64,000 nucleotides of DNA from a virus (lineage: Duplodnaviria > Caudoviricetes). Every line of letters starts with the position of its first letter. Position 1 is the first letter of the stretch. The notes under the pieces are model-generated. The model did not search any database and was not told the origin of the DNA. It saw only the letters and a program-made list of their open reading frames with translations. The DNA is taken from positions 15,817 to 79,816 of the IMG/VR virus record IMGVR_UViG_3300046615_000768; one strand, written 5' to 3'. The translations under genes and the position numbers were made by a program. Below, one piece after another: positions 30,087 to 64,000 of the stretch.

Positions 30087-30105
30087 CAGTCGTCGGCGTC
30101 ACCTG

Positions 30106-30137: not shown

Positions 30138-30154
30138 ACAGCTTCACCAGACAA

Positions 30155-30646: not shown

Positions 30647-30710
30647 CAGGTTGGGGAGCGCCGATTCTAGCCGTAGTTGTGACCAAAAGAAACGCTACAA
30701 GGAGATTATT

Positions 30711-30923
30711 TTGACCATCGAGAACAGCACCCTGAACGACAGCCGCGCCCTGCGCGAATCGAACGCCAGCTACAGCGGCGCATCGGGCGACGGCTGCCCC
30801 GACGTGGCGACCCTGAAACGCGGGTTCGCGGAGCTGCCAGATCCGGCCCCGACGTTCACGCCGTTCGCCGAAGCCCTCGACAAGGGCGGCTTCCTGACCC
30901 GGCCCCAGGGCTGGGAACGCTAA
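30711..30923 (+). CDS. Small hypothetical virion-region protein
   Basis: AAGGAG RBS with TTG start inside track ORF 30633..30923. Confidence 0.6.
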   Translation: MTIENSTLNDSRALRESNASYSGASGDGCPDVATLKRGFAELPDPAPTFTPFAEALDKGGFLTRPQGWER

Positions 30924-30962
30924 GCACACACCGTCGTATCCACCCCCACCAAGGAGAACAGC

Positions 30963-31187
30963 ATGTCCGATTCCAACTACAAGCCAGACGACACCGGCTT
31001 CGTGCACGGCGACCGCAAGCCGATGCCTGACCGTGGCACCACCACCGGCATGACCGGCTACAACACCCACGGCGAAGGCATGGGCCTCGGCCAGGACGAC
31101 ACGAACTCGATGGGCTCGATCACCGGCGCGACCGGCAGCGACGCCATGGAGAAGTGCTACGCCACCGACCCGAAAGGCTCGAAATAA
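30963..31187 (+). CDS. Small Gly/Thr/Met-rich protein
   Basis: AAGGAG RBS. Confidence 0.6.
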   Translation: MSDSNYKPDDTGFVHGDRKPMPDRGTTTGMTGYNTHGEGMGLGQDDTNSMGSITGATGSDAMEKCYATDPKGSK

Positions 31188-31438
31188 TGGCGGCGCCGAC
31201 TTTCGACCGAAACCGTCCACACGGCACCGTGTTCGGCGACCCCGAAGGACGCATCTACCACCAGGGCGATCATTTCTTCCGTGGTGACGGCACGCTCTGG
31301 ACCGAGCAGGCCACCGCCCAGCCCGACGCCGACGAACCGGCCAAGCCAGTGTCGACCAAGAAGAAGACAGCCGCCGCGGCCGATCCGGCGCCGGCCGCAG
31401 TCGATGCGCAGCTCGACGCACAGATGGGTGCCGCTTGA
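31187..31438 (+). CDS. Hypothetical protein (MAAPTFDRNRPHG...)
   Basis: TAATG overlap; Y.Q.DH.F..DG motif. Confidence 0.6.
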   Translation: MAAPTFDRNRPHGTVFGDPEGRIYHQGDHFFRGDGTLWTEQATAQPDADEPAKPVSTKKKTAAAADPAPAAVDAQLDAQMGAA

Positions 31439-48200: not shown

Positions 48201-48662
48201 GCCGTCGAGGTGGTCAAGGCCACGTCGGCAGTCTATACGAGCCAGGCGCAGCTCGCCCTGCAGGCCGGGGAGGCGAACCTGAAGATGGCGATGACGGCGG
48301 CCGAGACGGCGCAAGCATCCCTGCGCGCGGCCGGCCAGTTGTCCGGCCAGCTCGCCGCCGCGGCCCTGTCGGCACGCAGCGTTCACGCCTCGATCTCCGC
48401 GTCCGACTCGAACAGCGCCGTCAACAGCGCAAGCAACTCGGCGTCGAACTCGGCAAGCAATTCGAGCGTCAACAGCTCCAGCAACAGCAGCTCGAACAGC
48501 TCGGCGAACGCAGCGACGAACTCGTCCTCGAACAGCAGCAGCAACGCGTCGTCGAACTCGTCGAGCAACAGCTCGTCGAACGCGGGCGTCAACACGGCGA
48601 ACAACTCGTTCTCGCAGAGCTTGACCGACAACATCTCCGACATCACCACTCACCGGGAATAA
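42231..48662 (+). CDS. 2143-aa virion protein with paired repeat arrays
   Basis: GGAG RBS; 27 x 19-aa Pro-rich and 27 x 35-aa helical repeats; Ser/Asn tail. Confidence 0.85.
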   Translation: MAGRIGGGFTPVGPVAPATAAGPAPGADPARPADPARPADAAKPAEPATAVDQAPWIEGRATGVVEGYMSSSQSLAEEAHREAMRAITELGMFQANLPFLGMPNIPIPEVPLEPLGQAPVEPDNLVAAFPSAPTAPQIGTLPAIEVGPAPEFNVATPFLLDIPLPDPLAAVPPTAPVLTPVPVPSALTATVPTAPTLADVPAPDAFTAQVPDSPVITAPDMPTPLSANLPGAPSLSQLQAPSNLSVSAPAAPQINVVPVPGALDATLPAAPTLAALDAPSPLASTLPSAPQRNVVPVPGALAAEAPGALTLNEVPVPAPLTATAPQAPTLNAIVVPDPLAATLPSVPTLSELVQPSPLDAQLPVAPDQTAVAVPQPLQASAPLVPNLVEPDRPAPLAAVLPQAPQLTPVDVPAAFDASLPGLPVLNDPSAPSPLAIDAPLPPQLSAIAAPSSLAVNLPGAPVLDQFAVPAALAVDAPAAPELATIAAPAPLNATLPGAPTLSQFAVPTPFDTPAPVAPELAVIAVPGAITTALPDAPVLDQFAAPAALALDAPVAPELATPAVPAPLDATVPGAPTLSQFAVPTPFDTAAPVAPELSVIAVPGALTTALPDAPLLAEIPAPSPFDLAPPEVPQLAAIAVPAPLDATLPTAPVVNEIETPAPLDAALPAAPQLADVVLPLEPDFVFPSVPTMAGLNLPDVPILDLPLYNDTLRAGPDAPDTNFTWAEVEYNTTLLGTMNSRLVELVNGATTGLDPVVEQAIWNRGRDRQALITQRGVEEATRLFAGRGFKIPGGTLVRIVQQAVQEGMNADSDLSRDVMIKQAELEQANFQFAFNLAMQLESRLIEHYNSVQTRSLDAAKFTVASAIDLFNARISLFQADVQAFSAKAEVFKTRLQAALAQLDIYKAELEGQKLIGEINSQAVAVYTAQIDAVKSMADVYRTRVDAVKVRIEADASKVEMYRAQLAGFESQVRAKSSEYEGYATRVKAELTKVEMFSAQLAGYDSQVKAKSSEYEGYKHQVDAQNIKGDLYKSQMMGFDSMVKAKGQEFENYANLSRNELNKVEAYRAELLGFDSAVKAKGQEYANYEAQTRAEGIKADLYRADVAGFEAQVRAKGQEYENYANLTRAELNKVEAFRAELLGFDSLVKAKGQEYTNYEAQARAELTKVEAYRAAVSAFEAQVRAKGQEYENFNILSKTELNKLEVYRAELLGYDSAVKAKGQEVATYEAQTRAESVKADLYRADVAGFEAQVRAKGQEYENYANLSKNELNKIEAFRAELLGFDSLVKAKGQEYQNYEAQTRAELTKVEAFRAAVAAFEAQVRAKGQEYENFNILSKTELNKLEVYRAELLGVDSVIKAHGQEVASYEAQTRAEGVKADLYRAEVAGYEATVRAKGQEYENFATLSKNELNKVEVFRAALLGFDSLVKAKGQEYQNYEAQARAQAVNADFYRAEIAGFEAQVAAKRAEYEHYTQQATVDARKVDLYRAEIAGFEAQIRAKESEYAAYKAQVDAQMVMAEIYKASLAGFDSQVRAKIAEFDNFKTLSQVQLNIVEVYKAELVGYEAQVKAKGQEYQNYEAQTRAEGIKADLFRAEVAGFDSQVGAKRAEYENYSQQVRAELNKVEAYRAMLSGFEAQIKAKEVEFSGYEAQNRAQTVDAEIYKAQISGFDAEVRAKSAEYEQFATLSKTQLNEIEVYRAQLLGFDSQVKAKGQEYGNYEAQARAEAVKADIYRAEIAGFEAQVKAKSAEFENFATLTRAELNKIEAFKAELLGFDSQVRAKGQEYAHYEVQYKGEALKAEVFRNQLAGFETMVRAKAAEYEAYRSRIQAELSKIEVYKGQLMGFEAQVKAKDSEFSNYEQRVRAELVHSEIYRNQLLGFDSLVKAKATEYEAYGTRVKAEAIKVDMFGQEVGAFKSRTDAYGMLVNAKLGQANLNFKQSAEYPLEVFKSQVQGYQSGVAAEAERLRANATLFDTRVKAYAATENTHNEHTRAAVEVVKATSAVYTSQAQLALQAGEANLKMAMTAAETAQASLRAAGQLSGQLAAAALSARSVHASISASDSNSAVNSASNSASNSASNSSVNSSSNSSSNSSANAATNSSSNSSSNASSNSSSNSSSNAGVNTANNSFSQSLTDNISDITTHRE
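42723..44261 (+). repeat. 27 x 57-nt (19-aa, PxPLxAxLPxAPxLxxxxx) coding repeat
   Basis: Counted by hand, no indels (1539 nt). Confidence 0.9.
45126..47960 (+). repeat. 27 x 105-nt (35-aa, GF(D/E)xxV(K/R)AKxxEY...Yxxxxx) coding repeat
   Basis: Counted by hand, no indels (2835 nt). Confidence 0.9.
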
Positions 48663-48665
48663 ACC

Positions 48666-51332
48666 ATGGGCATTATCGAAGACGAATACAACCGGGCCAA
48701 CGGGCAGGGCCCGGCGCGCAATCCGGGTGTGCCGCTGCGCCCATCGGCGCCGCAGCCAGGCACCCCACCCGCACCGAACCCGACGGCCACGCACCCGCTG
48801 CGCGCCGCCGCGCCGGTGGGCGAGTCACTCGGCCAGACCGTGAACGGCCGCGCAGGCCCGCCGGCTCCGTCGCCGGTGCGCACTGCGATCGAAGGGCAGC
48901 CGGCCCCGAACCTGGGGCAAACCGTCGCCGAGCGCGTCCCGCAAGGCCCGCAGCTGCCACCGGAACAGCATCCATTGCGCACCGGCGCACCGGCCGGCCC
49001 GAACCTGGGGCAGACCGTGGCCGACCGTGCCGCGGGCAGCGTGCGCGCCGCCGCCCAGCAGGCGACTGCTGCACCGGGCAATGTGTTCGACAAGCTCAAC
49101 GCCGCCCAGCTGCGTTATGGCGACGGCACCCTGCCGAACCAGACCCTGGCCGAGACGATCAAGGGCCGTGTCCCGGCGCCGCCTTATAACGGTGCGCCAC
49201 CAGTGGCCGGCGCCCCGCCTGCGACCGCAGCTGCAGGCGGCGTCGGGGCGCCGCCACCAGGCACCCCGCCTGGCACCGCAGGCGGTCCCAGCTTCGCCAG
49301 CCGCGCCGGTAAAGCCATCGGCGACGCCGCGCGTGCGGCCATGCCGCAAGGCTCGGGCGCCGTCCTCGACGGCGGCACCGCGCTCGGCAAGGCGGTCGGC
49401 AGCGTGGCCAAGAAGGCCCTGCCATGGGTCGAGCCGGTGCACGAGGCGATCAACGTGGCGCGCGTGGCAAACGATCCGAAGGCCACCGCCGGCGACGTGG
49501 TCCAGCAGGCCGTCGAAGGCACCGGCCGCTGGGGCAGCACCGTGGGCGGCGCAACGCTCGGCGGCGCCGCCGGCGCATTGGTTGGTGGCCCGGCCGCACC
49601 CGCCACCGCCTTCATCGGTGGCGTGGCCGGTGGTATCGCCGGCTACATGGGTGGCGACGCAGCCGTCAACAAGCTGCGCAGCGTGTTCGGCCTCGGCGAC
49701 AAGAGCCCGATCGAGAAAACCGAGGAGCGCCGCCAGGCCGACGTGCGGGCGCAGGCGAAACTGCCGGCGATCTCGGAACCAGTCGTGCAGCCACCAAAGC
49801 TGCCAGGGGCCGCGCCGGCCACCATCGCGGCCGCCGCACCTGGCGCCGGTCCGGCGCGCACTGCGGCCGATACCCCCCAGCGCGGTGCGCCGACCGTCTC
49901 CCCGATCGCGCAGCAGCTGGCCGCGCTCCAGGCGCAGCAGGACGCCAGCCCGATCGCGCACACGACCATCGGCGGCGCCGGCAGCCAGGTGACTTACAAG
50001 GACGGCAGCATGAGCCCGCTGCTGCCGGGCCAGGCGATCCCGGACGACGTGGCTCAGTTCAACGCCTTGCACCAGCGCATGAACGCGCTGCGCAACGGCA
50101 CGCCGATGCCCGAGGATATGGGGGCACCGGCCGCGGCTGCTGGGCGCACCGTCCAGGCCTCGGCGCCGGCCAACATGCGCCCGGCGCAGCAGATGCTGCA
50201 CGCCGAAGCGGTCAATCAGGGCTACGACCCGATGCGCGCCATGATGATCAGCTCGATCGAGACTGGTGGCAAGTTCGACGCCGCGGCCAAGAACCCGAAA
50301 AGCTCCGCGTTCGGGCTTGTCCAGATGACGAAGGCCAACCGCGACAGCTACGGCCTGAGCCCGGAACAATGGGCCGATCCCGCGGTCCAGGCGCGCACCG
50401 GCATCGACTTCATGAAGAAGACGGACGCACAGCTGACCAATTCGCTCGGGCGCGCACCGACCCCGGCCGAGTCGTACATGGGGCACCTGTTCGGCCCGGC
50501 CGGCGCGACCAGCGTCCTGAGCGCCGACCCGAACCAGAAGATGCTCGACGTGGTGCGCTCGTATGACCCGAAGAACGCCAACGCCATCGTCAACAACAAC
50601 GGCTTCAAAGGCCTGACCGTCGGGCAGGCAGTGAACAAGCTGACCAAGATGACCGACGACCACATGAGCCGGATCAGCGGCGCCGGACAGCAGGGCGGCG
50701 GCCTGCTTGCCGCAGCGGCAACAGGCGTCGTCCCGCAGGTGGAAACCGGCGTGAACAACCCGGTGCACATCATCAAGGGCATGGCCCAAGGCATGGCCGT
50801 CCCGACCGCCTCCGGCTACGTCGAAATGCCGAAGGAGGTCTACGACGCCGCACGCCGCTCCCCGACCGGCTTTGCGCAGAACGGACTCGTGAACAACTAC
50901 CTCGACGGCCTCGCGCAGAACGCCGGTTTCCGCTCCAACCCGGTATCGGCCGAACTGGCCAAGGAAGCGGTGCGCGGCCAGTACCAGAACCAGGGGCAGG
51001 AGATCCAGGGCCGGTACGGGGTGCAGCAGCAGGGAATCTCCGCAGCGGGCCACCTGGCGGCCGCCGAGGTGGCAGCCAACGCCGACCACAACAAGATCAC
51101 CGTCATCGGCGGCGGCGATGCGATCGACCCGGTCACGAAGATGCCGATCAAGCAGCCGCAGCAAGGCGTCTACATGAAGGACGGCGTGCCGACCCCGGTC
51201 GAGCTGCCGAAGGCCAAGCCAAGCGAGCAGGAAGCACACGCGCAGGCGCGCGCTGCGATCGCCGGCAAGGCCAACAAGGACGAGGTCAACGCGCGTCTGG
51301 TGGCCAACGGCTACAAACCACTCCCCAACTAA
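48666..51332 (+). CDS. Internal virion/ejection protein with lytic transglycosylase (SLT-like) domain
   Basis: IETGGKFDAAAKNPKSSAFGLVQM ... Y..H.FG motif (about 50215-50640); Pro-rich N-terminus; glycine-zipper region. Confidence 0.8.
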   Translation: MGIIEDEYNRANGQGPARNPGVPLRPSAPQPGTPPAPNPTATHPLRAAAPVGESLGQTVNGRAGPPAPSPVRTAIEGQPAPNLGQTVAERVPQGPQLPPEQHPLRTGAPAGPNLGQTVADRAAGSVRAAAQQATAAPGNVFDKLNAAQLRYGDGTLPNQTLAETIKGRVPAPPYNGAPPVAGAPPATAAAGGVGAPPPGTPPGTAGGPSFASRAGKAIGDAARAAMPQGSGAVLDGGTALGKAVGSVAKKALPWVEPVHEAINVARVANDPKATAGDVVQQAVEGTGRWGSTVGGATLGGAAGALVGGPAAPATAFIGGVAGGIAGYMGGDAAVNKLRSVFGLGDKSPIEKTEERRQADVRAQAKLPAISEPVVQPPKLPGAAPATIAAAAPGAGPARTAADTPQRGAPTVSPIAQQLAALQAQQDASPIAHTTIGGAGSQVTYKDGSMSPLLPGQAIPDDVAQFNALHQRMNALRNGTPMPEDMGAPAAAAGRTVQASAPANMRPAQQMLHAEAVNQGYDPMRAMMISSIETGGKFDAAAKNPKSSAFGLVQMTKANRDSYGLSPEQWADPAVQARTGIDFMKKTDAQLTNSLGRAPTPAESYMGHLFGPAGATSVLSADPNQKMLDVVRSYDPKNANAIVNNNGFKGLTVGQAVNKLTKMTDDHMSRISGAGQQGGGLLAAAATGVVPQVETGVNNPVHIIKGMAQGMAVPTASGYVEMPKEVYDAARRSPTGFAQNGLVNNYLDGLAQNAGFRSNPVSAELAKEAVRGQYQNQGQEIQGRYGVQQQGISAAGHLAAAEVAANADHNKITVIGGGDAIDPVTKMPIKQPQQGVYMKDGVPTPVELPKAKPSEQEAHAQARAAIAGKANKDEVNARLVANGYKPLPN

Positions 51333-51343
51333 GCGGATAACAC

Positions 51344-54300
51344 ATGAGCATGTTCGACGATCTGGTCCCGGGCAACAAGAAAACCGGCATGTTTGAAGAC
51401 CTTGTGCCGCCCGAGCCAAGCACGGCGAGCCAGGTCGCGCGCCGCATCCCTGACCTCGCCGTCACCGGCGTCAAGGCAGCGATCAGCGTGCCCGAGTCGA
51501 TCGTCGGCCTTGCCGATCTCGTCACCGGCGGCCGTGCAGGCAAGGCCGTCGAAGAGGCCGGTATCGGCTTCAAGCAGACCAAGGAAGGCCTCGACACGCT
51601 CTATTCGGACGCGCAGAAGCAGGCCAACGCCGAAGTGAACGAGGCCAAGGGGTTCGTCCCGACCGTCGGTGCGATGGTGCAAAACCCGTCCACCATCCTG
51701 CACGCCGCCATCGAATCGGTGCCGTCGATGTTCCTCGGCGGCGCGATCGGCCGTGGCGTCATGGCCGCGGCCGGCGCGAAAGCCGGCGCGGTCGCTGGCG
51801 ATGCCCTCGCCGAAGGCGCCGCTGCAGCCGTCCCGCGGATCGGCTCGACTGCCGCCGGTGCCATCGGTGAGGGCGTCGTCGCGGCAGGCCAGAACGCCGA
51901 GCAGATCCGCCAGCAGAACCCGGAGGGCGACCTGTCGCTGCGCCAGGCGGCCATCACCGCGCTGTCGGGCGCAGCCACGGGCGGGCTCAGCCTCGCCGGC
52001 GGTCGCATCGCCAACAAGCTCGGCATCGGCGACGTGGACACCATGATCACGGCCGGTCGCGCCGGCGCCGTCGGTGGCGAAGCCGTTGACGCGGCAGCAC
52101 GTGCTGCGGCCGAGGCTGCAGCCAAGAAGGGCGTGCTGCGCAAGATCGGCGAAGGCGCCGTGTCCGAGGGCGTGTTCGAGGAAATGCCGCAGTCGTACCA
52201 GGAACAGGTTGCGCAGAACCTGGCCACCGACAAGCCGTGGAACGAAGGCGCCGCCGAAGCGGCAGCGCAGGGCATGCTCGCTGGCGGCCTGATGGGCGGC
52301 GGCGGCAACGTGCTCGCCCACCTGGGCGAGAAGAAGGTCCAGACGAGCAATACCGACGACACCGCGCCCGCTGCCCCGCCAGCCGCCGCGCCCGTCGACC
52401 CGGCACCAGCCGGTCCGACGCTTCCCCCGGCCGGACCGATGGAGAAGGCCGCCTCGCTCGTGCCCCAGCCCGAAGGCGGGAACAAGGTCTTCCCGTTCGG
52501 CGACCTCGCCCTGGCGCAGAAGCAGGCCGATTCGCTGAGCCAGTCGACCGGCATGCCGCACGAAGCGGGCGATCATCCCACCGTGCCCGGCCGCTTCGCC
52601 GCGCAGCCAGTGGCGATCCGCGGCAGCGACCCGCTGTTTACGGCAGAAGCCGAACGGCAAGGCCTCGACCCAGCCATCGCCCAGCTGCTGACCCACGGCC
52701 CGCAGGCCCAGGAGCTGGTCAAGGCCGCCATGGAAGCGAACCCCGGCCTCGATCCGCAAGAGTGGCGCGACCCGGCCGTGCGCGCCCAGCTCGGCGCCGC
52801 CTACCTGAAACGCCAGGTCGGCGAACTCGAAAGCGCGCTGGAACGTCCGCCGACCCCGGCCGAGGCGTACATCGCCCAGCAGGTCGGCGTGCCGACGGCC
52901 GCCTCGATGCTCAATACGCCCGAGCCCGAGCGCGCGATCCCCGTCTCGACCCTCATTCCCGACCCTGCGCAGGAAGACCGTCTGGGCCTGACCGGCATGC
53001 CGATCGGCGCGGCCATCGACTTCCTGACCAAGCAGGCCGACCAGCTTCTCTCCACCTTCAAGGAGCAGGGCAATGCAAACCTGGACACCGGAGTTCAAGG
53101 CGCTGGATCAGGAGACGGTGGATCTCGTGCTGGAGCAGGAATGGGTGACAGCGCAGGAAATGCGGCTGTACCTGGCCAACCAGCTGCCGGAACCGGCGCT
53201 GACGCGGCTGCGCTGCCTGCTGCTGCTGGTAACGCTGGAAATGACCCCGGAAACGCCGGTCCAGTAGCCTCGCCGCGCGTCGTCGTCGGCCCGAGCGAAA
53301 CGGGCTTCCAGAACGTCAACGCCCAGCGTCACCGCGACAAGGCCGACGCACTCGGCGTCACCGGCGAGATCGAGCGCCTGTTCGGCGACGGGCTCACCAT
53401 CAACCAGGTCATGGGCCAGCTGCAGGACAAGGTGCCCGACGTGGGGCGGTCCGACCTGCCGAACTTCGTGAACGGCGTCCGGGCCTCCCTCGGCATCCCC
53501 AACCCGATCTCGCCGGAAGGCAAGGGCGCGTTCGACGCCTGGCGCGCGCAATATAAAGAGCGCCTGGCCAACCCGCCGGCGCCGTCGAACGCCGGCGCGG
53601 CCAAGGTCACGCCGGAATTCATCCAGCCGAAGAACGACATCGACCTGGCCGCGCACGACGCCAGCAATTCGCCGCTGAACGACCGCACGCCGGCCACCCC
53701 GGGCCAGCAGGACGCAAACAACTACAAGGTCGGCCGCACCGAGATCCACGGTCTGAAAATCGGCATCGAGAACCCGAAGGGTTCCACCCGCACCGGATTC
53801 GACCCGGACGGCAAGCCGTGGAGCACGCTGATGACGGGCCACTACGGCCGTTTTACGGGCACCAAGGGCGCCGACGGCGACGCCGTGGACACGTTCATTG
53901 GCGACAACCCCGAGAGCAACAAGGTGTTCGTGGTCGACCAGGTCGACCCGAAGACGGGCAAGTTCGACGAACACAAGGTGCTTTTGGGCGCGAACAGTCA
54001 GCAGGAAGCGTCCGAGCTGTACCACGACAACTACGCCCCGGGCTGGAAGGGCGCCGGCGCGATCACCGAAACCACGCCAGAGGTGCTGAAAACCTGGCTG
54101 AAACAGGGCGACACCACGGCGCCATTCGCCAAGGTGGCCGCACCGGCCGCGGCGCCGCAGGGCCCGCTGGAGGTCGCCAAGCCGGCGCCCGAGGAGACGA
54201 CAGCGGCCGCCAGCAAGGTACAGCAGGCGCCGTACTTCGAGGTCGACGGCCGCACCTACAAGGTCAACAGCGGCACGCAGGGCAAAGAGTCCGTCTGGGC

Positions 54301-57300
54301 CAGCCTTGCCTTGCCCGAAGGCGAACAGGCCCCGGCTGGCAACTTCGGACAAGGCCTCTACGAGTTCGTCGAGCGCGACGGCCAAATGTACAAGGTCGAC
54401 CCGATCGGCGACAACCGCAGCCGCCTGACGCCGGTATCGCTGCGCGACGAGCCGATCTCGCTGCAGGCCCAGCCGGCCCCGGCCGCCACCACGGCAGACG
54501 ACAGCCGGAAGCCGCGCGACGCAGCTGTTAGCTATGCGATCTACGAGGCGACCCGGGCGCAGGAAGATCGAAACCGGCCAGCAATGGACGACGAGGACGC
54601 GGACCTCCACCTGGAGGCCATGCAGACCGCCCTCGAACGTGGCAAGTTCAGCTACGATCGCTTCGCCAGCTCCGATCTTGGCCAGCGCATGGATACCGCC
54701 GCGCTCGTCGGCCTGAAACCGTGGCTCGATAGCGACCCGGCCGGCACCCTGCAAGCGCTGCGGGAGCGCATCGCCACACGCGCCAACGCCAACCAGGCGC
54801 AGGGTACAGCCGAGCCGGCCTCCGCTCCGGTGGCCCAGCCGGCACCTACTTCGCCAGCCGAGCGTTGGAAAGGTGCCACCCCGGACGAGCGCGCGACCCA
54901 GCTACGCGATGCCGGCCGCGAGGACGTGGCCGACATTCTCAACAACGACGAGTGGGAAGACCTGCCGCCGCGCACCCAACAGTCGCTGTCGAGTCTTGCG
55001 GCACCACCGCAGCCGACCGCCGCCCCGGCCAGTTCGCTCGCCGACCTGCTGAAAAACGCCACGCGCCGCAGCAACATCAAGGGCATGGAAGGCGAGCAGG
55101 TCGCCGACCCGATCGCCCAGCAGCTGCTCGGCTCGAAGAAGTTCGATGAATTCGAGCGCGCCATTGCCGACAGCGGCCTGCAGCCGACCGGGGTCATCGG
55201 GGCAGGCGCCAGCTCGATCGTGCTCGACATGGGCGACAAGGTGCTGCGCCTGGGTACTGGTCCGAACGTGAATGTGCCGCGCATCGCCGGCGTGATCCAG
55301 CCGATCGACAGCAATGAGATCGGCGACCTGCGTTACCAGGTCATGCCCAAGGCCGACACCAGCAACATCACCGACGAGGATGTCGCCAAGGTGGCAAAGG
55401 GCCTGCGCGAGCAGGGCTACGAATTCACCGACGCCGGCACCGACAATGTCGGCCGCGTGAACGGCAAGCTGACGGTCATCGACCCGGGCGCAGTGCGCGA
55501 GATCCTGCCGCACGACAAGCCACTGGCCCCCGAGGGCTCCACCAGCTATCGCTACAAGGGACCGCTCGGCTACGTGATGATCGGCGCGCAAGACCATGAC
55601 GGCGCCATGAAGGAAGCCGCGCGCAGCCTGGAGAAGCCGCCGACGATCGACAACCTGCAGGTATGGGATGGTGAGCGCTACGTTCCCGTCGACAGCAAGC
55701 CAGCAGGCCCCACCACGCCTGCCGAAACCGCACCGGCCGCGCCGGAAGCCGAGGCTGGCTTCGACTCCGCCAGGTGGAACAAGGAACGCGACGACCGCAT
55801 CAAGGCCTCGAAGGCCGCGGGCAACCAGCATTTGGACGACCTGCCGCCCTACGTCGAGACGATGCGCGGCAAGCCGTTCTACTACGCCCATGACCCGCAG
55901 GAACGCGGCGTCGTGCGAACCGTCGCCAACACCGGCGACGTGGTCGTGCACTGGAATGACGAGTATTCGGCCAAGAAGAACCTGGCCAGCCAGACCAAGG
56001 ACGGCAAGAAGACGGTGTGGCAGTCCACGCTCGCACCGAGCGACCTAAAAGACTACGTGGTCGGCATGCCCAAGGCAGGCGCCACCACGTCCGCGCCGGC
56101 GACCCCGGAAGATCTAGCGGCCGCACGCCGTGCCGCGGCACTGCCCGACGCGCTCGCTGCACTGGAAGACCTGCGCAAGATCTCCGACCAGGCCAAACAG
56201 GCCGACGCCGCACCGGCCGCGGTGCCAGTGGCGCAAGCCCCGGCAACGCCGCGCACGGCCGCGCACGAGTTGACCCGCGAGCAGTATCGCCAAGCCGAAG
56301 ACCGCGGCCAGGACGGCGGCATCGCCGCGGCCAAGATCAAGCTCGACAAGCAGAACGTCCTGTCCCTGATGAAGGACCACAAGGACCAGATCCCGCTGCT
56401 GGGCAAGCTGATGGGCGCCAAGGGCGGGAAGGACCGCAAGAAGATGGCGGCCGACATCGTGCGGCTGCACCAGCTGGCCAAGGAGCTGGCCGGCGAGACC
56501 GAGGACAGCCTGCTCAAGCGCAAGGCCCCCGAGCTGAAAGCGCTGGCCAAGCGGGTCGGCGTGTACGCCGGCGGCAGCAAGGGCGACATGGCCCAAAGCA
56601 TCATCAAGAAGCGCGACGGCGGGCTGAAGACCTACCAGGACCGCCTGCAGGACCTGAAACACCGTGCGGCCGTCCTCAAGGCCGTGCGCGACGGCAAGAC
56701 TGTGCCGGACGCGGTGCTGGCCGACTACCCGAACATTACCGCCTTCGCCTACGAGCGCGGCACCCCGCAATACCAGACCGCGGTCGACCAGCTGGGCCGC
56801 TCCTACGTGCAGCCGCCGTTCGGCAACGTGCCGAATCTGCTGAAAGGCGTGCGCGCCGACGCGGCCGAGCTGACCGACCCGAAGGAAGCGCAGGTCCTGA
56901 ACGATGTCGCCGACGCTGCCGAGCGCCTGCTGGCCCAGCTCAATACCCTGAGCGACCCCACGTCCGATCAAGGACGCCGCGAGACCGGCGCCGAAGAGCG
57001 CGCCTGGCAGTCGACCCCGTTCGCCGATCGCATCCACACGATGCTGCAGCAGTTGCGCGCCGTCGGCGAGCACGGCATGGCCAACGCCATCGAGTCCGGC
57101 ATGCACAGCGACGCCAAGGCCGGCCGCCTGGACGAGGAAATGGTGGCGTTCCGCGAGGGCAAGGCCGGCGAGACGCTGGCCAAGGCCCAGCCGAACCCGG
57201 CCGCCAGCCAGGAGAAGGTGCACGAGTACGACCCGGAGGAAGCGAAACCGCTGCTCTTGATTGCCTGCGGCGAGAAGAAACTCGAAGGCAGGCACAAGGC

Positions 57301-60300
57301 GATCGACCTGTACCAGGGCGGCCTGTTCGACGTGCTGCACAAGCATTTGCGCCCGGGCGCGGTCGACGTGTACATCATTTCGGCCAGGCACGGCCTGATC
57401 CACGCCGACACGATCCTCGACAGCTACGACCAGAAGATGACGCCTGCACGCCAGGCCGAGCTGATGGCCAAGGGCGTCAACGTCGCCGACTTCGAGGGCA
57501 AGAATTTCAGTGAAGTCTTCGTCGCCGGCTCCCAGCTGTACACGCCGGTCGGCAAGGCCTACGCCGAGCAGCTGCGCGCGGCCGGCTTCGTCGGTCCCAA
57601 AGCGCACATCGAGACCACCTCCGGCTACATCGGCCACCACCGTGGCCAGCTGGGCGACTTCCTGCAGCAGCTGGGCGACAAGCAGGAGCCCGCCAAGCCC
57701 CGCGGCAAGGTGTCGGCGCGCGATCGCACCCGCGCCGCCGATCCGTTCCTGGCCCTGCTGGCCGAACGCGGCGTCAAGCTGGGACTGCAGGCCGACCTCG
57801 GCCTGGAGAAGGGAAACAAGGGCAACCGCATGGTGCCCGGCTTCGGCCCGCTCCTGCGCAACAGCGGTCTGAACCTCGATGAGCTGGCAGAGGCCGCGCG
57901 CGACGCCGGCTTTATTACCCAGCAGGACATCGACAACCCACAGGACCCGAGCGGCAGCAAGAAGATCAGCGACCTGATCCGCCGCGTCGTCGTCCAGCGT
58001 GAAGTCATCCCGGCCCTGGCCGACGTGGAGCAGGGCGCCCAGCAGCAGGCCGAGCAGCGCGCCGAGGCTGAACTGCGCACCCAGGCCGACGCCATGGGCA
58101 TCGCGCACGACAACATGTCCGCCGACGAGGTGTACGACGCCGTGCGCGAGCGCCTGGCCGACAACCTCGACGTGCCGCTGGAAGTGTATGATGACATCGC
58201 AGAGGACGCCGATGCGTTGCAGGAACACATCACGGCGGATGAGATCGACCGTGCACTCGATGCCGCTTTCGCCCTCCAACCGCAACAGCAGGAACTGACG
58301 GATGAACAACTCGACCAAATTTTCGGACCTGCAACGCAAGAAGCGCGTCCTCGCCAAGCTCAAGGCGATGACGCCGGCGCGCCGCGTGCAGGTACTGAAA
58401 CTGCTCAAGGCACGGCAGATCCTCAAGCAGCCGAACCCACCGCAAAGCTAACGCCGGACGACCAGGGCGTTCTGCTCTGGCACGGCACCACGATCAAGTT
58501 CCTGCTCGACGGCAAAGAACGCGAAGGTCGTGTTTCCAACAAGTACACGGTCGAGAACCGCCAGAATGGCGACCTGATCCGTGTGCGCTACGAACCCTTC
58601 CAGGGCAAGCGCAACCCGCAGGCTGGCAGCACTGAGATTCCCGAGTCGGCAGTGCTGGGCGTCACCCAAGCCTCACAGTGGGCGCCGGACGCAGCCGACT
58701 TCGCCCTGTCCGGGCAGAGCCTGGACGAGGGTCGCGCCGCGGCCGCCGCCGAAGAAGCGCGCCAGGCCGCCGAAGCGAAAGCTGAACGCGAGGCCGCGCG
58801 CCGCGAAGAAGCCGACAAGGAACGCGGCACCTTCACCCTGACTGGCAGCGACCGCCCAGCCGACGTACTGGCCGCGCAGGGCCAGACCAGCATCTTCGAC
58901 TTGGCCGCCGCGCCGGCCAAGGATGCGCAGGACGACGAACAGGCCGTGCTGGCCCGGCAGGAAGCGAAGATCCTCGCCCGCGAACAGCTGACGATGGACG
59001 ACCTGACGCCAGCCCAGCAGGCGAAGGCGACCGAGGAGGCCCGCGCCCGCCTGCAGCGCGAGCAGCTCGATCTCTCCTCCAGGGTCCATTTCGACGCGCG
59101 CCGCGACATGCCGATGACGCCGGCCAGGGAACAGCAGGCCGCGCGTCTCAAGGAAGTCGAGCGCATGCTCGACACCGGCTCGTTCACCCCATCCAACGGT
59201 GAGATCACGTCCGCGGCCGGCAAGCCGCGCAGCATGAAGTGGGAAGACCTGCCGTACATGCCAGGCCGCTCCATGGTCGGAGCCGACCTGGACCAGCGTT
59301 ACGTCCGCGTCCACGAACTGCTGCTCGATCCGAATCTGGACCCAGCGACCCGTGCCAGGCTCGACGCTGAACGCGAAGCGATGGAGGCACGCGCCTACAC
59401 GTCGCAGGAATGGCAGGCCGAGCTGCGCGAGCAGGCCGCCGAGCGCGTGCGCCTGAAATCCGAGACCGTGCCCAAGGGCGACCTGACGCGCGAGGAGATC
59501 GCGCGCCTGAAAAACCCGGACACGTGGACCAATGGTCTGCCGGCAGGCAATGCCCGCGATCTGGCCATCTTCAACAGCGTGCTGGGCAAGAAGAACACGA
59601 CGTTGCCGACCAGGATCACCCTGGCGGCCCTCAAGGATTACGTCAAGCCGGTGCAGGCAAAAGGTGGCGTCGCTGCCTGGCATTTCTTCGACATGGTGCA
59701 GCGCCGGATCAAGGCGCTCAATGAACGCGACCAGACCAAGTTCGACGCCGAAGTGAAAAAGCGCCTGGCACAGGCCGACGCCCCCGCGCCGGCGATGCGG
59801 ACGCCCGAGGACCTCGCCCCCGGGCGTGCAGTCGCACCGACGAAACTGCCCAAGACGCTGCCTGCGACGACGCTGATCGCAAAGGCAACCGAGCACGTCA
59901 AGGGCGAAGCCGCGTTCCGCCGCTTCGCCGAGGCCCACCTGAACGACCTGGCCAAAGCCGGCTACACCGTCTCCGCCGCCGAGCTGGCCAATGAGCTGGA
60001 CCAGCTGGCCTACGACCTGCTGTCGGCGCCGCACGGCGATTCGCCGGCCAAATTCCAGGAGATCAGCGACGAGGACTATCCGCCGCTGCCCGGCCGCGAG
60101 GACGCCATGCTGGACGATCCGGGGATGGAGCGCCTCTTCAAGCTGTTCCCGGAACCGGGTCCGCTCGTGAGCGCAGCCAAGCAGGCCGCCGGCGAGCGCC
60201 TGACCATGGAACAGGCCCAGGCACGTCTGGAAACCTGGAAGGCCGAAGCCAAGCGCATCGGCCAGTCGGGCAAGAACGCCAAGAAGGTGATCCTGTCGCT

Positions 60301-63300
60301 GTTCGATGCGTCGGGCGTGTGGAGCCAGCCATACGTGGACGCCGGCTACATGGTCGTGCGCTACGACCTGAACCACGGGGACAACCTGGTCGAGAATTTC
60401 CCCATGAACGACATCGTGACGCTGCGTCGGGCCGGCTACGAGATCGCCGGCGTGATCGCGCAGCCGCCGTGCACGTCGTTCTCGAACGCGGGCCGCTGGT
60501 CCTGGCCAAGCCAGCATCAGTCGCCGAGCAAGTATTTCGTCGAGAAGAAGTACGGCGCCTGGGCGACCAAGTATTTCGACACCGCGATCGACGCCGCCGA
60601 CACCCTCGGCATGGTCGCGCAAGCCGTGATCGAAATGGCCGCGCCGACCGAGTTCTACGTGATGGAGAACCCACGCGGGCGCATCGCCGAGCGCCTGCAG
60701 CTGCCGGGCGCGCGCATGGTGATCCAGCCGCACGTCTACGGTAACGCCTACACCAAGGAAACGTTCCTGTACGGTGAGTTCCAGACTGACCTGCCGACGG
60801 CAAACGTATCGCCCAAGGAAGAAGACGGCGGCGAGGGCAGCCGGATCTTCAAGCTGCGCGGCACCGACGCCGAGGAGCACGCGCTGCGCTCGCTCACGCC
60901 GGAAGGTTTTGCCTACGCCTGGTTCATGGCGAACCACGACCGCTCGGCCCTCGCGCCGCGCCAGACGCCGGCCCTGTCGGCAAACCCGGATTACACCGAC
61001 GCGCTGGAGCGAATCCGCACGGACGGCATGCTCGACCGCATCGAGCGCGGCGAGGAAAAGCCGTCCGGCTGGTACGGCGATGTCGACGAGCCGCTGCGCT
61101 TCGAGTCCGGCATGAGCGCGCCGAAGGACTTCGAGGGCGTGTTCGCCAATGACAAGAACGTCGGGATCTCGCTCAAGGATCTGGCCGAAAGCAACCTCAC
61201 GCGCCTGGCCGAAGCGATGGCCCTGACTACCAGGTCGCACCTGTTCGTCGACACCGGCGCCTTCTCCCTGTTCGGGGTCAATGCCAAGGCCAAGGCCTCG
61301 GGCCAGGCCGAGTTCACCGAGTTCGGCGAGGGCGGCAAGGCCCTGAACTTCAACAAGGTCATCGACTTGCACCACGCACTGGCGTCGGCAGTGTCGAAGG
61401 CCGACGACAGCGGCTATACCAACGACCGCATTTTCTGGGTCATGCCCGACGTGGTCGGCAACCAGGCACTCTCGCTGGAACTGGTCAGCAAGTACCGCGC
61501 CGAGATCGTCGGCACCGGCACCATGCGCGCGATCGTGCCGCTGCAGGGCGGCGCTCTCACGCTGACCCAGGCATACGAGAAGATGATGACCAACCTCGGG
61601 TGGGACCCGAAGACGGACGTTTCGCCGATCATCGGCATCCCCTCGAACCCGAAGATCGAAGGGATCTCGAACGAGGCCATCACGGACCTGCTCAAGGCCT
61701 ACGGCGACAACATCGGTGGCATCCATATCCTGGGCGCGGCGACCGAGTCGGCGCTGACCCCGCGGCTGGACGCCATCCGCGCCGCTGGCTACGACGGAAA
61801 CGTCTCGGCCGATGCCTTCACGCTGCGCGGCAAGCTCACGTCCGGCACCGCGCGCGCCGAGGCGTTCCGCAAGATCGCCGGCGACCTGACCCTCAAGGAC
61901 GTGATGCCGGGCAAGCAGCGGGTCGATTACGTCCGCTGGGATTTCATCAGCGATCTGCCTGGCTATATCAGCGCGCTCGAAGCAGGCCGCGAAGTCCTCG
62001 CCGCCGACATGGAATCGACCAAGGTCCCCAAGGACATGAGCTTCACGCCGGACACCAACGGCCAGAATGTGCTCAAGTCGGGCGACACCGTCCTGGCCCG
62101 CCAGCCGGCGGCATGGGGCCGCAACCTCGATCGCCCTGTGCTGGTCAACGAGATCGACCGCGAGATCCGCAGCGCAAAGGCATTCCTCGCCGCGAACCCG
62201 GAACGCTCGCTGCCAGGCTTCGTGTCGCCGGCCATGACCGAGCTGCAGGGCCTGGCCACGGCCGTCAAGCCGAGCGAGCAAGAGGCGGCGCCGGCCGAGA
62301 ATGCGGACGATGCCCGTCGACCAGCATGGAGCGCGCTGGGCGAGCGCGTCGAGCTGCTGCTGCCACGCACGGTCGGCACCAAGGCCCCGAGCGCGGAGGC
62401 TTACCAGCGCGTGGCCGCTGCACTGCAGATCCCGCTGGCCGACGTGAAAGCGGCGCATGCCGTGTACATCGCCGACGACGCCACCGTGCCCGCGCACGAG
62501 GCGCCGGTTCTGGCGGGCAGCAACGGCCAGGACGCGCTGTTCTCGCGCGCCCCGTCGAAGTACGCCCGCGAGAAGATGCCGCTGGACCAGTGGCGCGTGC
62601 TCAAGCGCGACCACAACAACCTGCTGCCGGAAGAGAAGGCCGCATTCGACGCCTTCATCAAGGAACGCCCGGACGGCAAGCGCGTACTGGCCCAGCTGAA
62701 CCTGCACCGCGGCACGCCGTGGGCACGGCAAGCCCTGGAAGGCATCTTCGTGCGCCAGGCCATCCTGACCTACATCAAGGGCCAGGCCCCGGCGTTCCAG
62801 AGCATGATGGAACACCCGTCGGCCGAATCGTTGCGCAGCATCCTCGGCCGCCACGGCTACAAGGGCCTGATGATGCGCCTGGAGGAGACGGGTTACGTGG
62901 GCGAGGCCGAAAAGCCGGTGCACAACGTCTCGTCCTCGTTCATCAACTGCAACCCGTCCGACGACTGCGCCAAATACTGCTACGCCACCGGCGGCCACTA
63001 CACCCGCACGTTCGCCGTCATCAAGGCCGAGCTGGTGACGCTGGCGGTCGAGCATGACCCGGTCGCCGCGGCCAAGGGGACCGCCAAGGACTTCATGCGG
63101 ACCTGGGAATACGAGAACAATAAGGCGCTGCGCCTGTTCGACAAGGGCGACGGCAACGCCGACTGGCTGCCATACATCAAGGCGCTCAACGCCGAAGGCG
63201 TGCGGGTCCAGATTTTCTCGAAGAACCCGGAGTTCCTGCGTCAGGTGCCGGACATGAACCTGCGCCTGCTGTCGATTGACCAGACCAACCTGGGCCTGGC

Positions 63301-64000
63301 CGACGCCAACCCGGACCTGCCTGTTGCGTTCGTGTACGACAAATCGCCCGGCCAGATCGAATTTGTGGCTAAATTGGCCTTGCGGAAGCAATTGGCCGTC
63401 GTGTTGCCGATCCAGCTGGGCAAGCGCGTGCTGACCAAGCCAGAGCTGCGTGAGCTGCAGGCACTCCCGGGCGTGTCGCAGCATATCTGCCCGATCGACG
63501 CCGGCATCCGGCCGCTGGGGACGAACACCGACTCGGACCCGAAGGCGTGGAACTGCACCAAGTGCGATGTGAAGGGCGGGATTGGCTGCTTCTTCGGCGC
63601 CCCGACCACGGCGGTCAAGGCGCAGGCCCTGCGCCCGGCCGACATGACGCCGCAGCAGGTCGTGGCCGCGCGCATCCAGGAACTGACGAGAGAATTCAAT
63701 GAAATCACCGAAGGAATTACTGCACCTGCCGGAACTGCTCGAAATCTGGCCGCAACTGGACCCGATGCAGCAGCACGCCTACAAGGACTACGTGGCGCGG
63801 TTGACCGCCTCATGGGTGAACTACTCGGCCACTTCGTCAGCGGAGAAGAAACAAGAGATGCTCGGGAAGGCGGTGCAGGAGATGAACGAGCGGATCGCGG
63901 CCAGCAAGCGCAACCTGGAAGCGATCGCCGAACCATCCCCATCGCCAAGGCCCGAGACGCCGACGGCAACCCGCTCGCCTCGCGCAGCGGGGTAGAACCG
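51344..64000 (+). CDS. Giant polyvalent (DarB/LPD-like) virion protein, at least 4219 aa, 3'-truncated by the window
   Basis: MSMFDDLVP start; frame read open at every point checked including the last 340 nt; the track lists no closed ORF in this frame; InPase-like, kinase-like, YaaA/DUF6884-like, C5 MTase, TGT-like and gp88-like segments. Confidence 0.85.
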   Translation, partial: MSMFDDLVPGNKKTGMFEDLVPPEPSTASQVARRIPDLAVTGVKAAISVPESIVGLADLVTGGRAGKAVEEAGIGFKQTKEGLDTLYSDAQKQANAEVNEAKGFVPTVGAMVQNPSTILHAAIESVPSMFLGGAIGRGVMAAAGAKAGAVAGDALAEGAAAAVPRIGSTAAGAIGEGVVAAGQNAEQIRQQNPEGDLSLRQAAITALSGAATGGLSLAGGRIANKLGIGDVDTMITAGRAGAVGGEAVDAAARAAAEAAAKKGVLRKIGEGAVSEGVFEEMPQSYQEQVAQNLATDKPWNEGAAEAAAQGMLAGGLMGGGGNVLAHLGEKKVQTSNTDDTAPAAPPAAAPVDPAPAGPTLPPAGPMEKAASLVPQPEGGNKVFPFGDLALAQKQADSLSQSTGMPHEAGDHPTVPGRFAAQPVAIRGSDPLFTAEAERQGLDPAIAQLLTHGPQAQELVKAAMEANPGLDPQEWRDPAVRAQLGAAYLKRQVGELESALERPPTPAEAYIAQQVGVPTAASMLNTPEPERAIPVSTLIPDPAQEDRLGLTGMPIGAAIDFLTKQADQLLSTFKEQGNANLDTGVQGAGSGDGGSRAGAGMGDSAGNAAVPGQPAAGTGADAAALPAAAGNAGNDPGNAGPVASPRVVVGPSETGFQNVNAQRHRDKADALGVTGEIERLFGDGLTINQVMGQLQDKVPDVGRSDLPNFVNGVRASLGIPNPISPEGKGAFDAWRAQYKERLANPPAPSNAGAAKVTPEFIQPKNDIDLAAHDASNSPLNDRTPATPGQQDANNYKVGRTEIHGLKIGIENPKGSTRTGFDPDGKPWSTLMTGHYGRFTGTKGADGDAVDTFIGDNPESNKVFVVDQVDPKTGKFDEHKVLLGANSQQEASELYHDNYAPGWKGAGAITETTPEVLKTWLKQGDTTAPFAKVAAPAAAPQGPLEVAKPAPEETTAAASKVQQAPYFEVDGRTYKVNSGTQGKESVWASLALPEGEQAPAGNFGQGLYEFVERDGQMYKVDPIGDNRSRLTPVSLRDEPISLQAQPAPAATTADDSRKPRDAAVSYAIYEATRAQEDRNRPAMDDEDADLHLEAMQTALERGKFSYDRFASSDLGQRMDTAALVGLKPWLDSDPAGTLQALRERIATRANANQAQGTAEPASAPVAQPAPTSPAERWKGATPDERATQLRDAGREDVADILNNDEWEDLPPRTQQSLSSLAAPPQPTAAPASSLADLLKNATRRSNIKGMEGEQVADPIAQQLLGSKKFDEFERAIADSGLQPTGVIGAGASSIVLDMGDKVLRLGTGPNVNVPRIAGVIQPIDSNEIGDLRYQVMPKADTSNITDEDVAKVAKGLREQGYEFTDAGTDNVGRVNGKLTVIDPGAVREILPHDKPLAPEGSTSYRYKGPLGYVMIGAQDHDGAMKEAARSLEKPPTIDNLQVWDGERYVPVDSKPAGPTTPAETAPAAPEAEAGFDSARWNKERDDRIKASKAAGNQHLDDLPPYVETMRGKPFYYAHDPQERGVVRTVANTGDVVVHWNDEYSAKKNLASQTKDGKKTVWQSTLAPSDLKDYVVGMPKAGATTSAPATPEDLAAARRAAALPDALAALEDLRKISDQAKQADAAPAAVPVAQAPATPRTAAHELTREQYRQAEDRGQDGGIAAAKIKLDKQNVLSLMKDHKDQIPLLGKLMGAKGGKDRKKMAADIVRLHQLAKELAGETEDSLLKRKAPELKALAKRVGVYAGGSKGDMAQSIIKKRDGGLKTYQDRLQDLKHRAAVLKAVRDGKTVPDAVLADYPNITAFAYERGTPQYQTAVDQLGRSYVQPPFGNVPNLLKGVRADAAELTDPKEAQVLNDVADAAERLLAQLNTLSDPTSDQGRRETGAEERAWQSTPFADRIHTMLQQLRAVGEHGMANAIESGMHSDAKAGRLDEEMVAFREGKAGETLAKAQPNPAASQEKVHEYDPEEAKPLLLIACGEKKLEGRHKAIDLYQGGLFDVLHKHLRPGAVDVYIISARHGLIHADTILDSYDQKMTPARQAELMAKGVNVADFEGKNFSEVFVAGSQLYTPVGKAYAEQLRAAGFVGPKAHIETTSGYIGHHRGQLGDFLQQLGDKQEPAKPRGKVSARDRTRAADPFLALLAERGVKLGLQADLGLEKGNKGNRMVPGFGPLLRNSGLNLDELAEAARDAGFITQQDIDNPQDPSGSKKISDLIRRVVVQREVIPALADVEQGAQQQAEQRAEAELRTQADAMGIAHDNMSADEVYDAVRERLADNLDVPLEVYDDIAEDADALQEHITADEIDRALDAAFALQPQQQELTDEQLDQIFGPATQEARPRQAQGDDAGAPRAGTETAQGTADPQAAEPTAKLTPDDQGVLLWHGTTIKFLLDGKEREGRVSNKYTVENRQNGDLIRVRYEPFQGKRNPQAGSTEIPESAVLGVTQASQWAPDAADFALSGQSLDEGRAAAAAEEARQAAEAKAEREAARREEADKERGTFTLTGSDRPADVLAAQGQTSIFDLAAAPAKDAQDDEQAVLARQEAKILAREQLTMDDLTPAQQAKATEEARARLQREQLDLSSRVHFDARRDMPMTPAREQQAARLKEVERMLDTGSFTPSNGEITSAAGKPRSMKWEDLPYMPGRSMVGADLDQRYVRVHELLLDPNLDPATRARLDAEREAMEARAYTSQEWQAELREQAAERVRLKSETVPKGDLTREEIARLKNPDTWTNGLPAGNARDLAIFNSVLGKKNTTLPTRITLAALKDYVKPVQAKGGVAAWHFFDMVQRRIKALNERDQTKFDAEVKKRLAQADAPAPAMRTPEDLAPGRAVAPTKLPKTLPATTLIAKATEHVKGEAAFRRFAEAHLNDLAKAGYTVSAAELANELDQLAYDLLSAPHGDSPAKFQEISDEDYPPLPGREDAMLDDPGMERLFKLFPEPGPLVSAAKQAAGERLTMEQAQARLETWKAEAKRIGQSGKNAKKVILSLFDASGVWSQPYVDAGYMVVRYDLNHGDNLVENFPMNDIVTLRRAGYEIAGVIAQPPCTSFSNAGRWSWPSQHQSPSKYFVEKKYGAWATKYFDTAIDAADTLGMVAQAVIEMAAPTEFYVMENPRGRIAERLQLPGARMVIQPHVYGNAYTKETFLYGEFQTDLPTANVSPKEEDGGEGSRIFKLRGTDAEEHALRSLTPEGFAYAWFMANHDRSALAPRQTPALSANPDYTDALERIRTDGMLDRIERGEEKPSGWYGDVDEPLRFESGMSAPKDFEGVFANDKNVGISLKDLAESNLTRLAEAMALTTRSHLFVDTGAFSLFGVNAKAKASGQAEFTEFGEGGKALNFNKVIDLHHALASAVSKADDSGYTNDRIFWVMPDVVGNQALSLELVSKYRAEIVGTGTMRAIVPLQGGALTLTQAYEKMMTNLGWDPKTDVSPIIGIPSNPKIEGISNEAITDLLKAYGDNIGGIHILGAATESALTPRLDAIRAAGYDGNVSADAFTLRGKLTSGTARAEAFRKIAGDLTLKDVMPGKQRVDYVRWDFISDLPGYISALEAGREVLAADMESTKVPKDMSFTPDTNGQNVLKSGDTVLARQPAAWGRNLDRPVLVNEIDREIRSAKAFLAANPERSLPGFVSPAMTELQGLATAVKPSEQEAAPAENADDARRPAWSALGERVELLLPRTVGTKAPSAEAYQRVAAALQIPLADVKAAHAVYIADDATVPAHEAPVLAGSNGQDALFSRAPSKYAREKMPLDQWRVLKRDHNNLLPEEKAAFDAFIKERPDGKRVLAQLNLHRGTPWARQALEGIFVRQAILTYIKGQAPAFQSMMEHPSAESLRSILGRHGYKGLMMRLEETGYVGEAEKPVHNVSSSFINCNPSDDCAKYCYATGGHYTRTFAVIKAELVTLAVEHDPVAAAKGTAKDFMRTWEYENNKALRLFDKGDGNADWLPYIKALNAEGVRVQIFSKNPEFLRQVPDMNLRLLSIDQTNLGLADANPDLPVAFVYDKSPGQIEFVAKLALRKQLAVVLPIQLGKRVLTKPELRELQALPGVSQHICPIDAGIRPLGTNTDSDPKAWNCTKCDVKGGIGCFFGAPTTAVKAQALRPADMTPQQVVAARIQELTREFNEITEGITAPAGTARNLAATGPDAAARLQGLRGAVDRLMGELLGHFVSGEETRDAREGGAGDERADRGQQAQPGSDRRTIPIAKARDADGNPLASRSGVEP
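53073..53267 (+). CDS. Overprinted ORF in the +1 frame of the giant gene (64 aa)
   Basis: AAGGAG RBS; GC3-rich codons in this frame while the host frame becomes A/T-ending Gly/Ala linker. Confidence 0.55.
   Translation: MQTWTPEFKALDQETVDLVLEQEWVTAQEMRLYLANQLPEPALTRLRCLLLLVTLEMTPETPVQ
58302..58451 (+). CDS. Overprinted basic ORF in the +1 frame (49 aa, not in track)
   Basis: AGGA RBS; MNNSTKFSDLQRKKRVLAKLKAMTPARRVQVLKLLKARQILKQPNPPQS; codon bias shifts to this frame. Confidence 0.5.
   Translation: MNNSTKFSDLQRKKRVLAKLKAMTPARRVQVLKLLKARQILKQPNPPQS
63699..63995 (+). CDS. Overprinted ORF in the +1 frame (98 aa)
   Basis: GC3-rich codons in the +1 frame, A/T-ending codons in the host frame; helical protein-like sequence. 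Confidence 0.55.
   Translation: MKSPKELLHLPELLEIWPQLDPMQQHAYKDYVARLTASWVNYSATSSAEKKQEMLGKAVQEMNERIAASKRNLEAIAEPSPSPRPETPTATRSPRAAG

Follow-up and report, generated by a model that had tools for sequence, protein, structure and literature searches.

Small genes lying wholly inside larger ones are familiar in bacteriophages from Rz1, which is embedded in Rz in phage lambda and its relatives (PMC5295617, PMC6139136) as a short gene in the +1 frame of a same-strand gene, with a start of its own. The spanins to which this pair belongs are embedded, overlapped or separate in different phages, and are embedded also in the Bcep22-like phages (PMC9144972). Polyvalent proteins (Iyer et al. 2017, PMC5512222), which combine many enzymatic domains including the PolyVal-type inorganic pyrophosphatase-like (InPase) domain, are another described system close to the locus reported here. 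This locus lies in 64,000 nucleotides of viral DNA (the window; Duplodnaviria, Caudoviricetes), corresponding to positions 15,817 to 79,816 of the IMG/VR virus record IMGVR_UViG_3300046615_000768, where a giant DarB-like virion-protein gene very probably carries at 53073-53267, embedded in its +1 frame, a real and separately translated small gene (nested gene 1, product P0002).

The gene-in-gene arrangement itself is already known from Rz1 in Rz, but P0002 has no sequence or functional relation to that pair and has no lipobox or signal peptide. Its host is a virion-protein gene of 4,000-7,000 codons, the overlapping stretch is a long disordered linker, and one host gene contains three nested genes unrelated to each other; this last feature, together with a second nested family that has a free-standing relative, is what is new here. 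Compared with the polyvalent proteins, with which the host gene shares its many enzymatic domains, the nested genes are an added layer: neither overlapping genes nor alternative frames nor TnpV appear in the text of PMC5512222, and a literature search found no overlapping genes reported for DarB-like genes. DarB of phage P1 is known to require small accessory proteins (PMC12810830), and the small Dar proteins Ulx, DdrA, DdrB and Hdf are made beside the giant DarB and co-packaged with it; according to the authors of those studies, no homologues of the Dar accessory proteins are known in phages with DarB-like giants (PMC12810830, PMC9144972). Packaging of such a giant protein in the virion and its injection have been shown by proteomics only for the Bcep22-like phage JC1 (PMC9144972).

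A displaced codon pattern inside the giant gene

The host open reading frame (ORF) runs in frame 0 from 51344 to the end of the window without a stop, as seen in the ORF list and the translation, and nested gene 1 lies wholly inside it, on the same strand and in the +1 frame ((53073-51344) mod 3 = 1). Across the giant frame the GC contents of the first, second and third codon positions (GC1/2/3) are 0.70/0.47/0.85, and GC3 stays at 0.85-0.95 along 12.6 kb with the exception of three dips: in a 120-nt sliding window it falls below 0.62 only at 53024-53308, 58214-58498 and 63629-63973. Each dip shows a high/high/low pattern, as normal coding sequence does when shifted by one base (+1), and each contains one ATG-initiated ORF in the +1 frame. 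Over 53069-53263, for example, frame 0 has GC1/2/3 of about 0.85/0.75/0.33-0.40. A codon-usage log-likelihood trained on the remainder of the giant ORF flips at all three sites; at site 1 the score per 150 nt falls in frame 0 from +20 to -34 nats and rises in the +1 frame from -45 to +19, a level typical of genuine coding sequence in the giant ORF. An earlier note on this DNA, made from its letters alone, had described an AAGGAG, an ATG and a +1 ORF at this place, a loss of GC3 bias in the host frame with a gain of normal codon usage in the +1 frame, and the same switch at 58302 and 63699. Its coordinates are borne out by the sequence, sliding-window GC3 and codon likelihood agree on the switch, and the three dips, the only ones in 12.6 kb, stand at the sites that it named.

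The length of the inner ORF is by itself no evidence and does not exceed chance, since among +1 windows of 66 codons in such genes 17-22% are open; the composition switch and the conservation described below exceed chance. The same frequency would suit a different explanation, in which selection favoured A/T-ending Gly and Ala codons as a brake on the ribosome between domains, the +1 ORF being a by-product, and the codons GGA, GCT and GGT are indeed rare in this 66% GC genome and stand at a domain boundary. Yet five further low-complexity linkers of the same ORF, taken as a control, keep GC3 at 0.74-0.91, and a rare-codon pause predicts none of the +1 residue conservation, the Shine-Dalgarno (SD) motif, the fixed start and stop or the free-standing homologue, all of which are seen; we regard it as very improbable.

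Nested gene 1 has its own ribosome-binding site and start codon (AAGGAG-N7-ATG), from which internal initiation at 53073 is predicted. The closest +1 stop upstream of the ATG lies 45 nt away at site 1, 3 nt at site 2 and 12 nt at site 3. The 45 nt left open at site 1 would allow a programmed +1 frameshift, whereby some ribosomes slip within 53028-53072 and make a truncated N-terminal product ending in the 64 residues, and the annotation of Sinorhizobium phage PBC5 places a different, TnpV-like sequence in frame at the C-terminal end of a giant gene that is split. Slippage of this kind has very little to recommend it when the open stretch shrinks to the few nucleotides found at sites 2 and 3, when family members carry a properly spaced SD-like motif, and when the free-standing form uses its own ATG. 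A promoter and terminator scan of 52700-53400 found none, leaving an own promoter for the nested gene unsupported.

Selection on the inner frame and the family of P0002

Scans of viral contigs provided close relatives of the locus, namely L002 (=G001), L095 (=G005) and L003/L097 (=G002/G003), with flanks that are 84%, 62% and 50-56% identical to the window, respectively. Both L002 (70% identical) and L095 (42% identical) have the nested ORF at the length of 64 codons, with ATG and stop unchanged; upstream of its ATG, L002 has the identical SD motif and L095 a weaker one (GAAGGGGA). The linker alignment of the window, L002 and the Logan proteins P0008 and P0009 is gap-free over its full length, and in L095 the nested ORF is ungapped, the host frame differing by one residue just past the nested stop. 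Despite 33% nucleotide divergence, L095 retains the GC3 dip (0.28-0.33).

Selection on the two frames was compared by a relocation simulation, in which the observed substitutions were re-placed at random with frame 0 kept open and the changes per codon position preserved. For three pairs, the BLOSUM z of the +1 frame was 3.4, 3.1 and 2.5 (P 0.0003, 0.0018 and 0.0065) and that of frame 0 was 0.8, 2.2 and -0.1, and an intact +1 ORF was expected by chance in 0.13, 0.010 and 0.025 of trials. Frame 0 was no more conservative than random placement in three of four comparisons; the comparison of the window with L095 was marginal (z 2.2, P 0.015), as was frame 0 at site 3 (z 2.7). Frame 0 is open in all nested members, and +1 values of z 2.5-3.4 indicate purifying selection on the inner frame.

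L003 and L097 are a natural control for nested gene 1. In both (L003:3479-3700, L097:3479-3700) the gene has been lost: 26-29 codons of the linker are deleted, the +1 stop is gone, the +1 frame reads as Arg/Pro/Ala junk, and the GC3 of the host frame has risen to about 0.7, a recovery that is predicted where the +1 constraint is relaxed.

A profile built from three sequences (the window, L002 and L095) was searched against 1.84 billion representative proteins and returned 11 further true matches, all of 64-76 amino acids (aa) and aligned end to end (E 5e-25 to 7e-4); a twelfth match, P0018, the one long match, proved to be an unrelated repeat protein. In the 14-sequence family alignment, where identity goes down to 25-38%, residues W4, E29, L52, P62 and Q64 are invariant and P6, L11, W24, L38 and L55 nearly so, and a C-terminal P-x-Q is common to the members. 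No longer protein with the P0002 sequence in frame was found among the 1.84 billion, which argues against a frame-shifted former domain.

Where the DNA of relatives could be read, the small ORF is nested in the +1 frame of an open ORF at nine loci, representing seven distinct lineages. At L102, L103, L104, L105, L108, L109 and L110 the host ORF is open across the small ORF, mostly spans the contig from end to end (up to 1,468 codons), and reads there as a Gly/Ala/Pro/Asp linker; an AAGGAGG or GGAGG stands at the same distance from the ATG in L102/L103, L104, L105 and L109/L110. In several phage lineages of soil and rhizosphere, the family's place in the giant genes is behind the N-terminal module. 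In one lineage, L106/L107 (L106:3322-5438), a member is free-standing, with both other frames closed and with its own ATG. Upstream of it lie an open frame of 770 codons, from which an SLT-domain protein of 740 aa was called, and two small minus-strand genes, and directly downstream a holin-like gene, a lysozyme and a spanin-like lipoprotein. This layout is reminiscent of Bcep22-like phages, where the giant gene is followed by two reverse genes and then by the lysis module (PMC9144972), and it has a similar counterpart in the P0017 contig. The lysis-cassette position of the free-standing homologue may indicate a link to lysis. That the family is free-standing elsewhere, and that its residues are kept where it is nested, argues for a real gene.

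The family bears equally on the alternative that the stretch is a fossil or a compensated frameshift, in other words that the present +1 frame was formerly the coding one, whether within the giant protein itself or in a neighbouring gene since captured, and that only frame 0 is read today while the +1 signal decays. A linker that tolerates any sequence and the harmless loss of the gene in L003/L097 would agree with such a history, and the free-standing relative would fit an origin by read-through capture; but across 33% nucleotide divergence the +1 ORF is still there, start and stop included, with substitutions that are conservative (chance survival 0.01-0.13), three lineages hold the low GC3 steady and an increase is confined to the place where the ORF is broken, and members at 25-38% identity are still nested behind an SD-like motif that is strong in most of them. 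The earlier note had itself named a compensated frameshift in the host gene as the outcome that would undo its claim. The +1 stop 45 nt before the ATG, the SD-like motif across the family and the lack of any fused in-frame form in 1.84 billion proteins (1.84e9) speak against it, and we consider decay or compensation unlikely.

The reading of 53073-53267 as a real gene is consistent with the earlier note's proposal of real nested genes within the linkers of the polyvalent protein, which has held up: each of the three +1 ORFs is conserved among relatives under selection of the +1 type, and nested gene 1 has in addition a family of at least 14 sequences, including the free-standing gene. Several points nevertheless weigh against this reading. 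The evidence for nested gene 1 is at the level of sequence, and its translation is predicted. The loss in L003/L097 shows that the gene is dispensable. The SD motif is weaker in L095 and in L108 (CAGGAGA), and the free-standing L106/L107 have only GACGAGG. Under a looser null, in which codon positions are not preserved, the close pair still gives P 0.0012, and the distant pairs give P 0.11-0.15, with only P 0.15 for the most distant. The family members come mostly from short metagenome contigs, several of them from the same studies, and are not fully independent. The AlphaFold2 (AF2) model of P0002, an acidic protein (isoelectric point, pI, 4.2) with three predicted helices, is of moderate confidence (predicted local distance difference test, pLDDT, 67.6), and no fold or family match points to a function.

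The searches behind this last point covered sequence and structure. P0002 has no match in Pfam; the best match in PHROGs has E 0.0036 and concerns one of the 14 family members, and the best among PDB sequences has E 0.93. Fold searches with the models of P0002 and P0004 (the product of nested gene 3) against PDB and BFVD gave nothing at E <= 0.001, and the ESM Atlas gave no usable match for either. With P0002 alone, or together with P0007, nothing beyond L002 turned up in a tblastn of cultured phages or in scans of genome, metagenome and viral contigs; neither P0021 nor P0016 matched any cultured phage by tblastn, so that queries with three members found no family member in the cultured-phage records. 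Searches of genome and metagenome contigs with the host-frame flanks found nothing.

The host gene and its other probable nested genes

The features of the locus are collected in Table 1. The end of the window is the end of the 79,816-bp IMG/VR provirus record, of which the window is the last 64 kb, and the giant ORF is cut there. The one sequencing run that matches this DNA well is a rhizosphere metagenome DNA run.

Table 1. Features of the giant gene and its predicted nested genes, in window positions
Feature	Positions	Strand	Details and basis
Host gene (giant DarB-like / polyvalent virion-protein ORF, frame 0)	51344..64000	+	at least 4,218 codons; ORF list and translation
Shine-Dalgarno motif AAGGAG	53060..53065	+	7-nt spacer to nested ATG; read from sequence
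Predicted nested gene 1 (+1 frame), product P0002	53073..53267	+	64 codons and TAG (53265-53267); translation
Gly/Ala/Pro/Asp-rich linker of the giant protein, frame 0	53084..53278	+	aa 581-645; GC1/2/3 0.83/0.75/0.38
InPase (PolyVal-type inorganic pyrophosphatase-like) domain	53702..54103	+	Pfam PF18823, E 4.6e-53, aa 787-920
Predicted nested gene 2 (+1 frame), product P0003	58302..58451	+	49 codons; very basic, pI 12; translation
Predicted nested gene 3 (+1 frame), product P0004	63699..63995	+	98 codons; helical hairpin; translation

The InPase domain is the next recognizable domain of the host protein downstream of nested gene 1, and a DUF6884 match follows at aa 1971-2078 (Pfam). Relatives of the giant protein are 5,885-7,157 aa long and have SNF2 and helicase domains; among them, P0008 and P0009 carry SNF2 and helicase-C domains together with PF18858, PF28553, PF28554 and PF28555. 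The host gene, a giant multidomain ORF with PolyVal-type domains, is therefore classed from its InPase and DUF6884 domains, and from its SNF2/helicase-bearing relatives, as a DarB-like polyvalent virion-protein gene; PMC5512222 describes this kind of gene, and Bcep22-like phages have it too (PMC9144972). A division of the giant ORF into several genes was ruled out, as frame 0 has no stop and GC3 is high on both sides, here and in L099. Opposite the giant gene, antisense ORFs at 58673-63484 (-; 1,603 codons) and 56114-58426 (-; 770 codons) are the usual artefact of high GC content; in L100, too, both strands are open.

The ORFs at 58302 and 63699 belong, as judged from their sequences, to families other than that of P0002; the possibility that the three ORFs of the window are paralogues was rejected, there being no pairwise similarity. 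No homologues were called for P0004 or P0003, and P0004 compared with the TnpV-like family discussed below has an hhalign probability of 0.1%. At site 2, G004 (=L099) has the same 49-codon ORF with the same start and stop at 73% identity, the differences at +1 positions 3/1/2 number 18/4/8, and the +1 BLOSUM test gives P 0.018. The homology between the giant genes of the window and G004 ends exactly after the nested stop, and the following 80-residue segment of the giant protein (58451-58690) is absent from this close relative, which suggests module exchange at the borders of nested genes. At site 3, where the AF2 model of P0004 is a helical hairpin (pLDDT 78), the ORF is retained in L099 at 83% identity, with 19/11/9 differences at +1 positions 3/1/2 and a +1 z of 3.2-3.9. 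The giant frame of L099 (L099:3380-3700) continues past nested gene 3 and past the point at which the record of the window stops, with GC3 again above 0.9, into an HExxH (HEVLGH) zincin-like domain, so that nested gene 3 is located there between a Cys-rich domain and a peptidase domain.

Another nested family appears in the same kind of host. G001 and G002 show further GC3 dips with +1 ORFs (P0006, P0005) that are TnpV-like in appearance, and the TnpV-like nested gene was traced in G003 as well. Its homologues occupy the +1 frame in two phages with an annotated DarB-like gene, Agrobacterium phage Atu_ph08 and Klebsiella phage SopranoGao, and also at L075 and L076. These genes resemble nested gene 1 in belonging to the same host gene family (DarB-like / PLxRFG), in being nested in the +1 frame of a linker with their own ATG, and in being unannotated. 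They differ from it in preceding the methylase-helicase part, whereas the P0002 gene follows the N-terminal module, and in encoding products of 100-125 aa, against 64 aa for P0002, of another protein family: an hhalign comparison of the P0002 and TnpV-like families gives a probability of 0.2%, and P0002 has no match to Pfam TnpV (PF14198). Both types occur, unrelated to each other, in one 7,157-codon ORF of G001, the P0002 type at 38098-38292 (L114) and the TnpV type at 48589-48867 (L113).

Two further observations concern these linkers and their records. In Sinorhizobium phage PBC5 (L091, NC_003324), gp22 (26155-32697) has the TnpV-like sequence in frame at its C-end, and the downstream frame is open already from 270 nt earlier; the record probably contains a frameshift that splits one giant gene. 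In G001, a giant-ORF linker at 37275-37490 (L083) consists of a tandem PANPAN... peptide repeat with a mild GC3 dip (0.58), and the long +1 frame open over it looks like junk, so some dips are without a gene.

Two predicted products from one linker

If nested gene 1 is translated as predicted, ribosomes starting at 51344 would read the linker in frame 0 as a featureless Gly/Ala/Pro/Asp spacer (aa ~578-645), of which only the openness, the rough length and the small-residue make-up appear to count, and other ribosomes would start at the internal AAGGAG-N7-ATG to make a 64-residue acidic, probably three-helix protein. Since the linker would tolerate almost any sequence, the nested gene would dictate the nucleotides, and for this reason the host frame would be left with 'wrong' codons (GC3 ~0.36) and the +1 frame with normal ones.

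We tentatively suggest that P0002 might act together with the giant protein, for example as a helper in assembly, folding or packaging, because the two would be made from one mRNA, because the nested gene keeps a constant place after the N-terminal module, and because P1 DarB has its accessory proteins. The likeness to the P1 Dar accessory proteins is proposed as a functional analogy only, set apart from sequence similarity, and the Dar accessory genes differ in not being nested. The earlier note had conjectured that the nested products may inhibit or chaperone neighbouring enzymatic domains and restrain them during late expression, an idea for which the fold and family searches gave no lead. 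A complex prediction for P0002 with the upstream module (aa 396-578) gave a score of 0.01, which speaks neither for nor against a partnership. On a broader and equally speculative view, giant polyvalent genes might be two-layer carriers, in which each exchangeable module has its own out-of-frame partner in the adjoining linker (at least four unrelated families), the partners serving as helpers or restrainers specific to their module and being produced in cis from the shared mRNA, and module and partner recombining as a unit, as the homology that ends exactly at the nested stop of site 2 would suggest.

In some phage genomes, about a fifth of the length is taken by DarB-like giants. Because gene finders do not allow one gene within another, nested proteins are missing from phage annotation; the P0002 family entered protein libraries only where short contigs had broken the host ORF. 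The case illustrates that a second gene can be accommodated in a disordered linker with hardly any cost, and that several nested genes of unrelated families can share one host gene. With both nested and free-standing members, the P0002 family offers a natural pair for studying how overlaps originate, and the hidden in-gene partners are candidates for the DarB helper role in those phages that have no known counterparts of the Dar accessory proteins.

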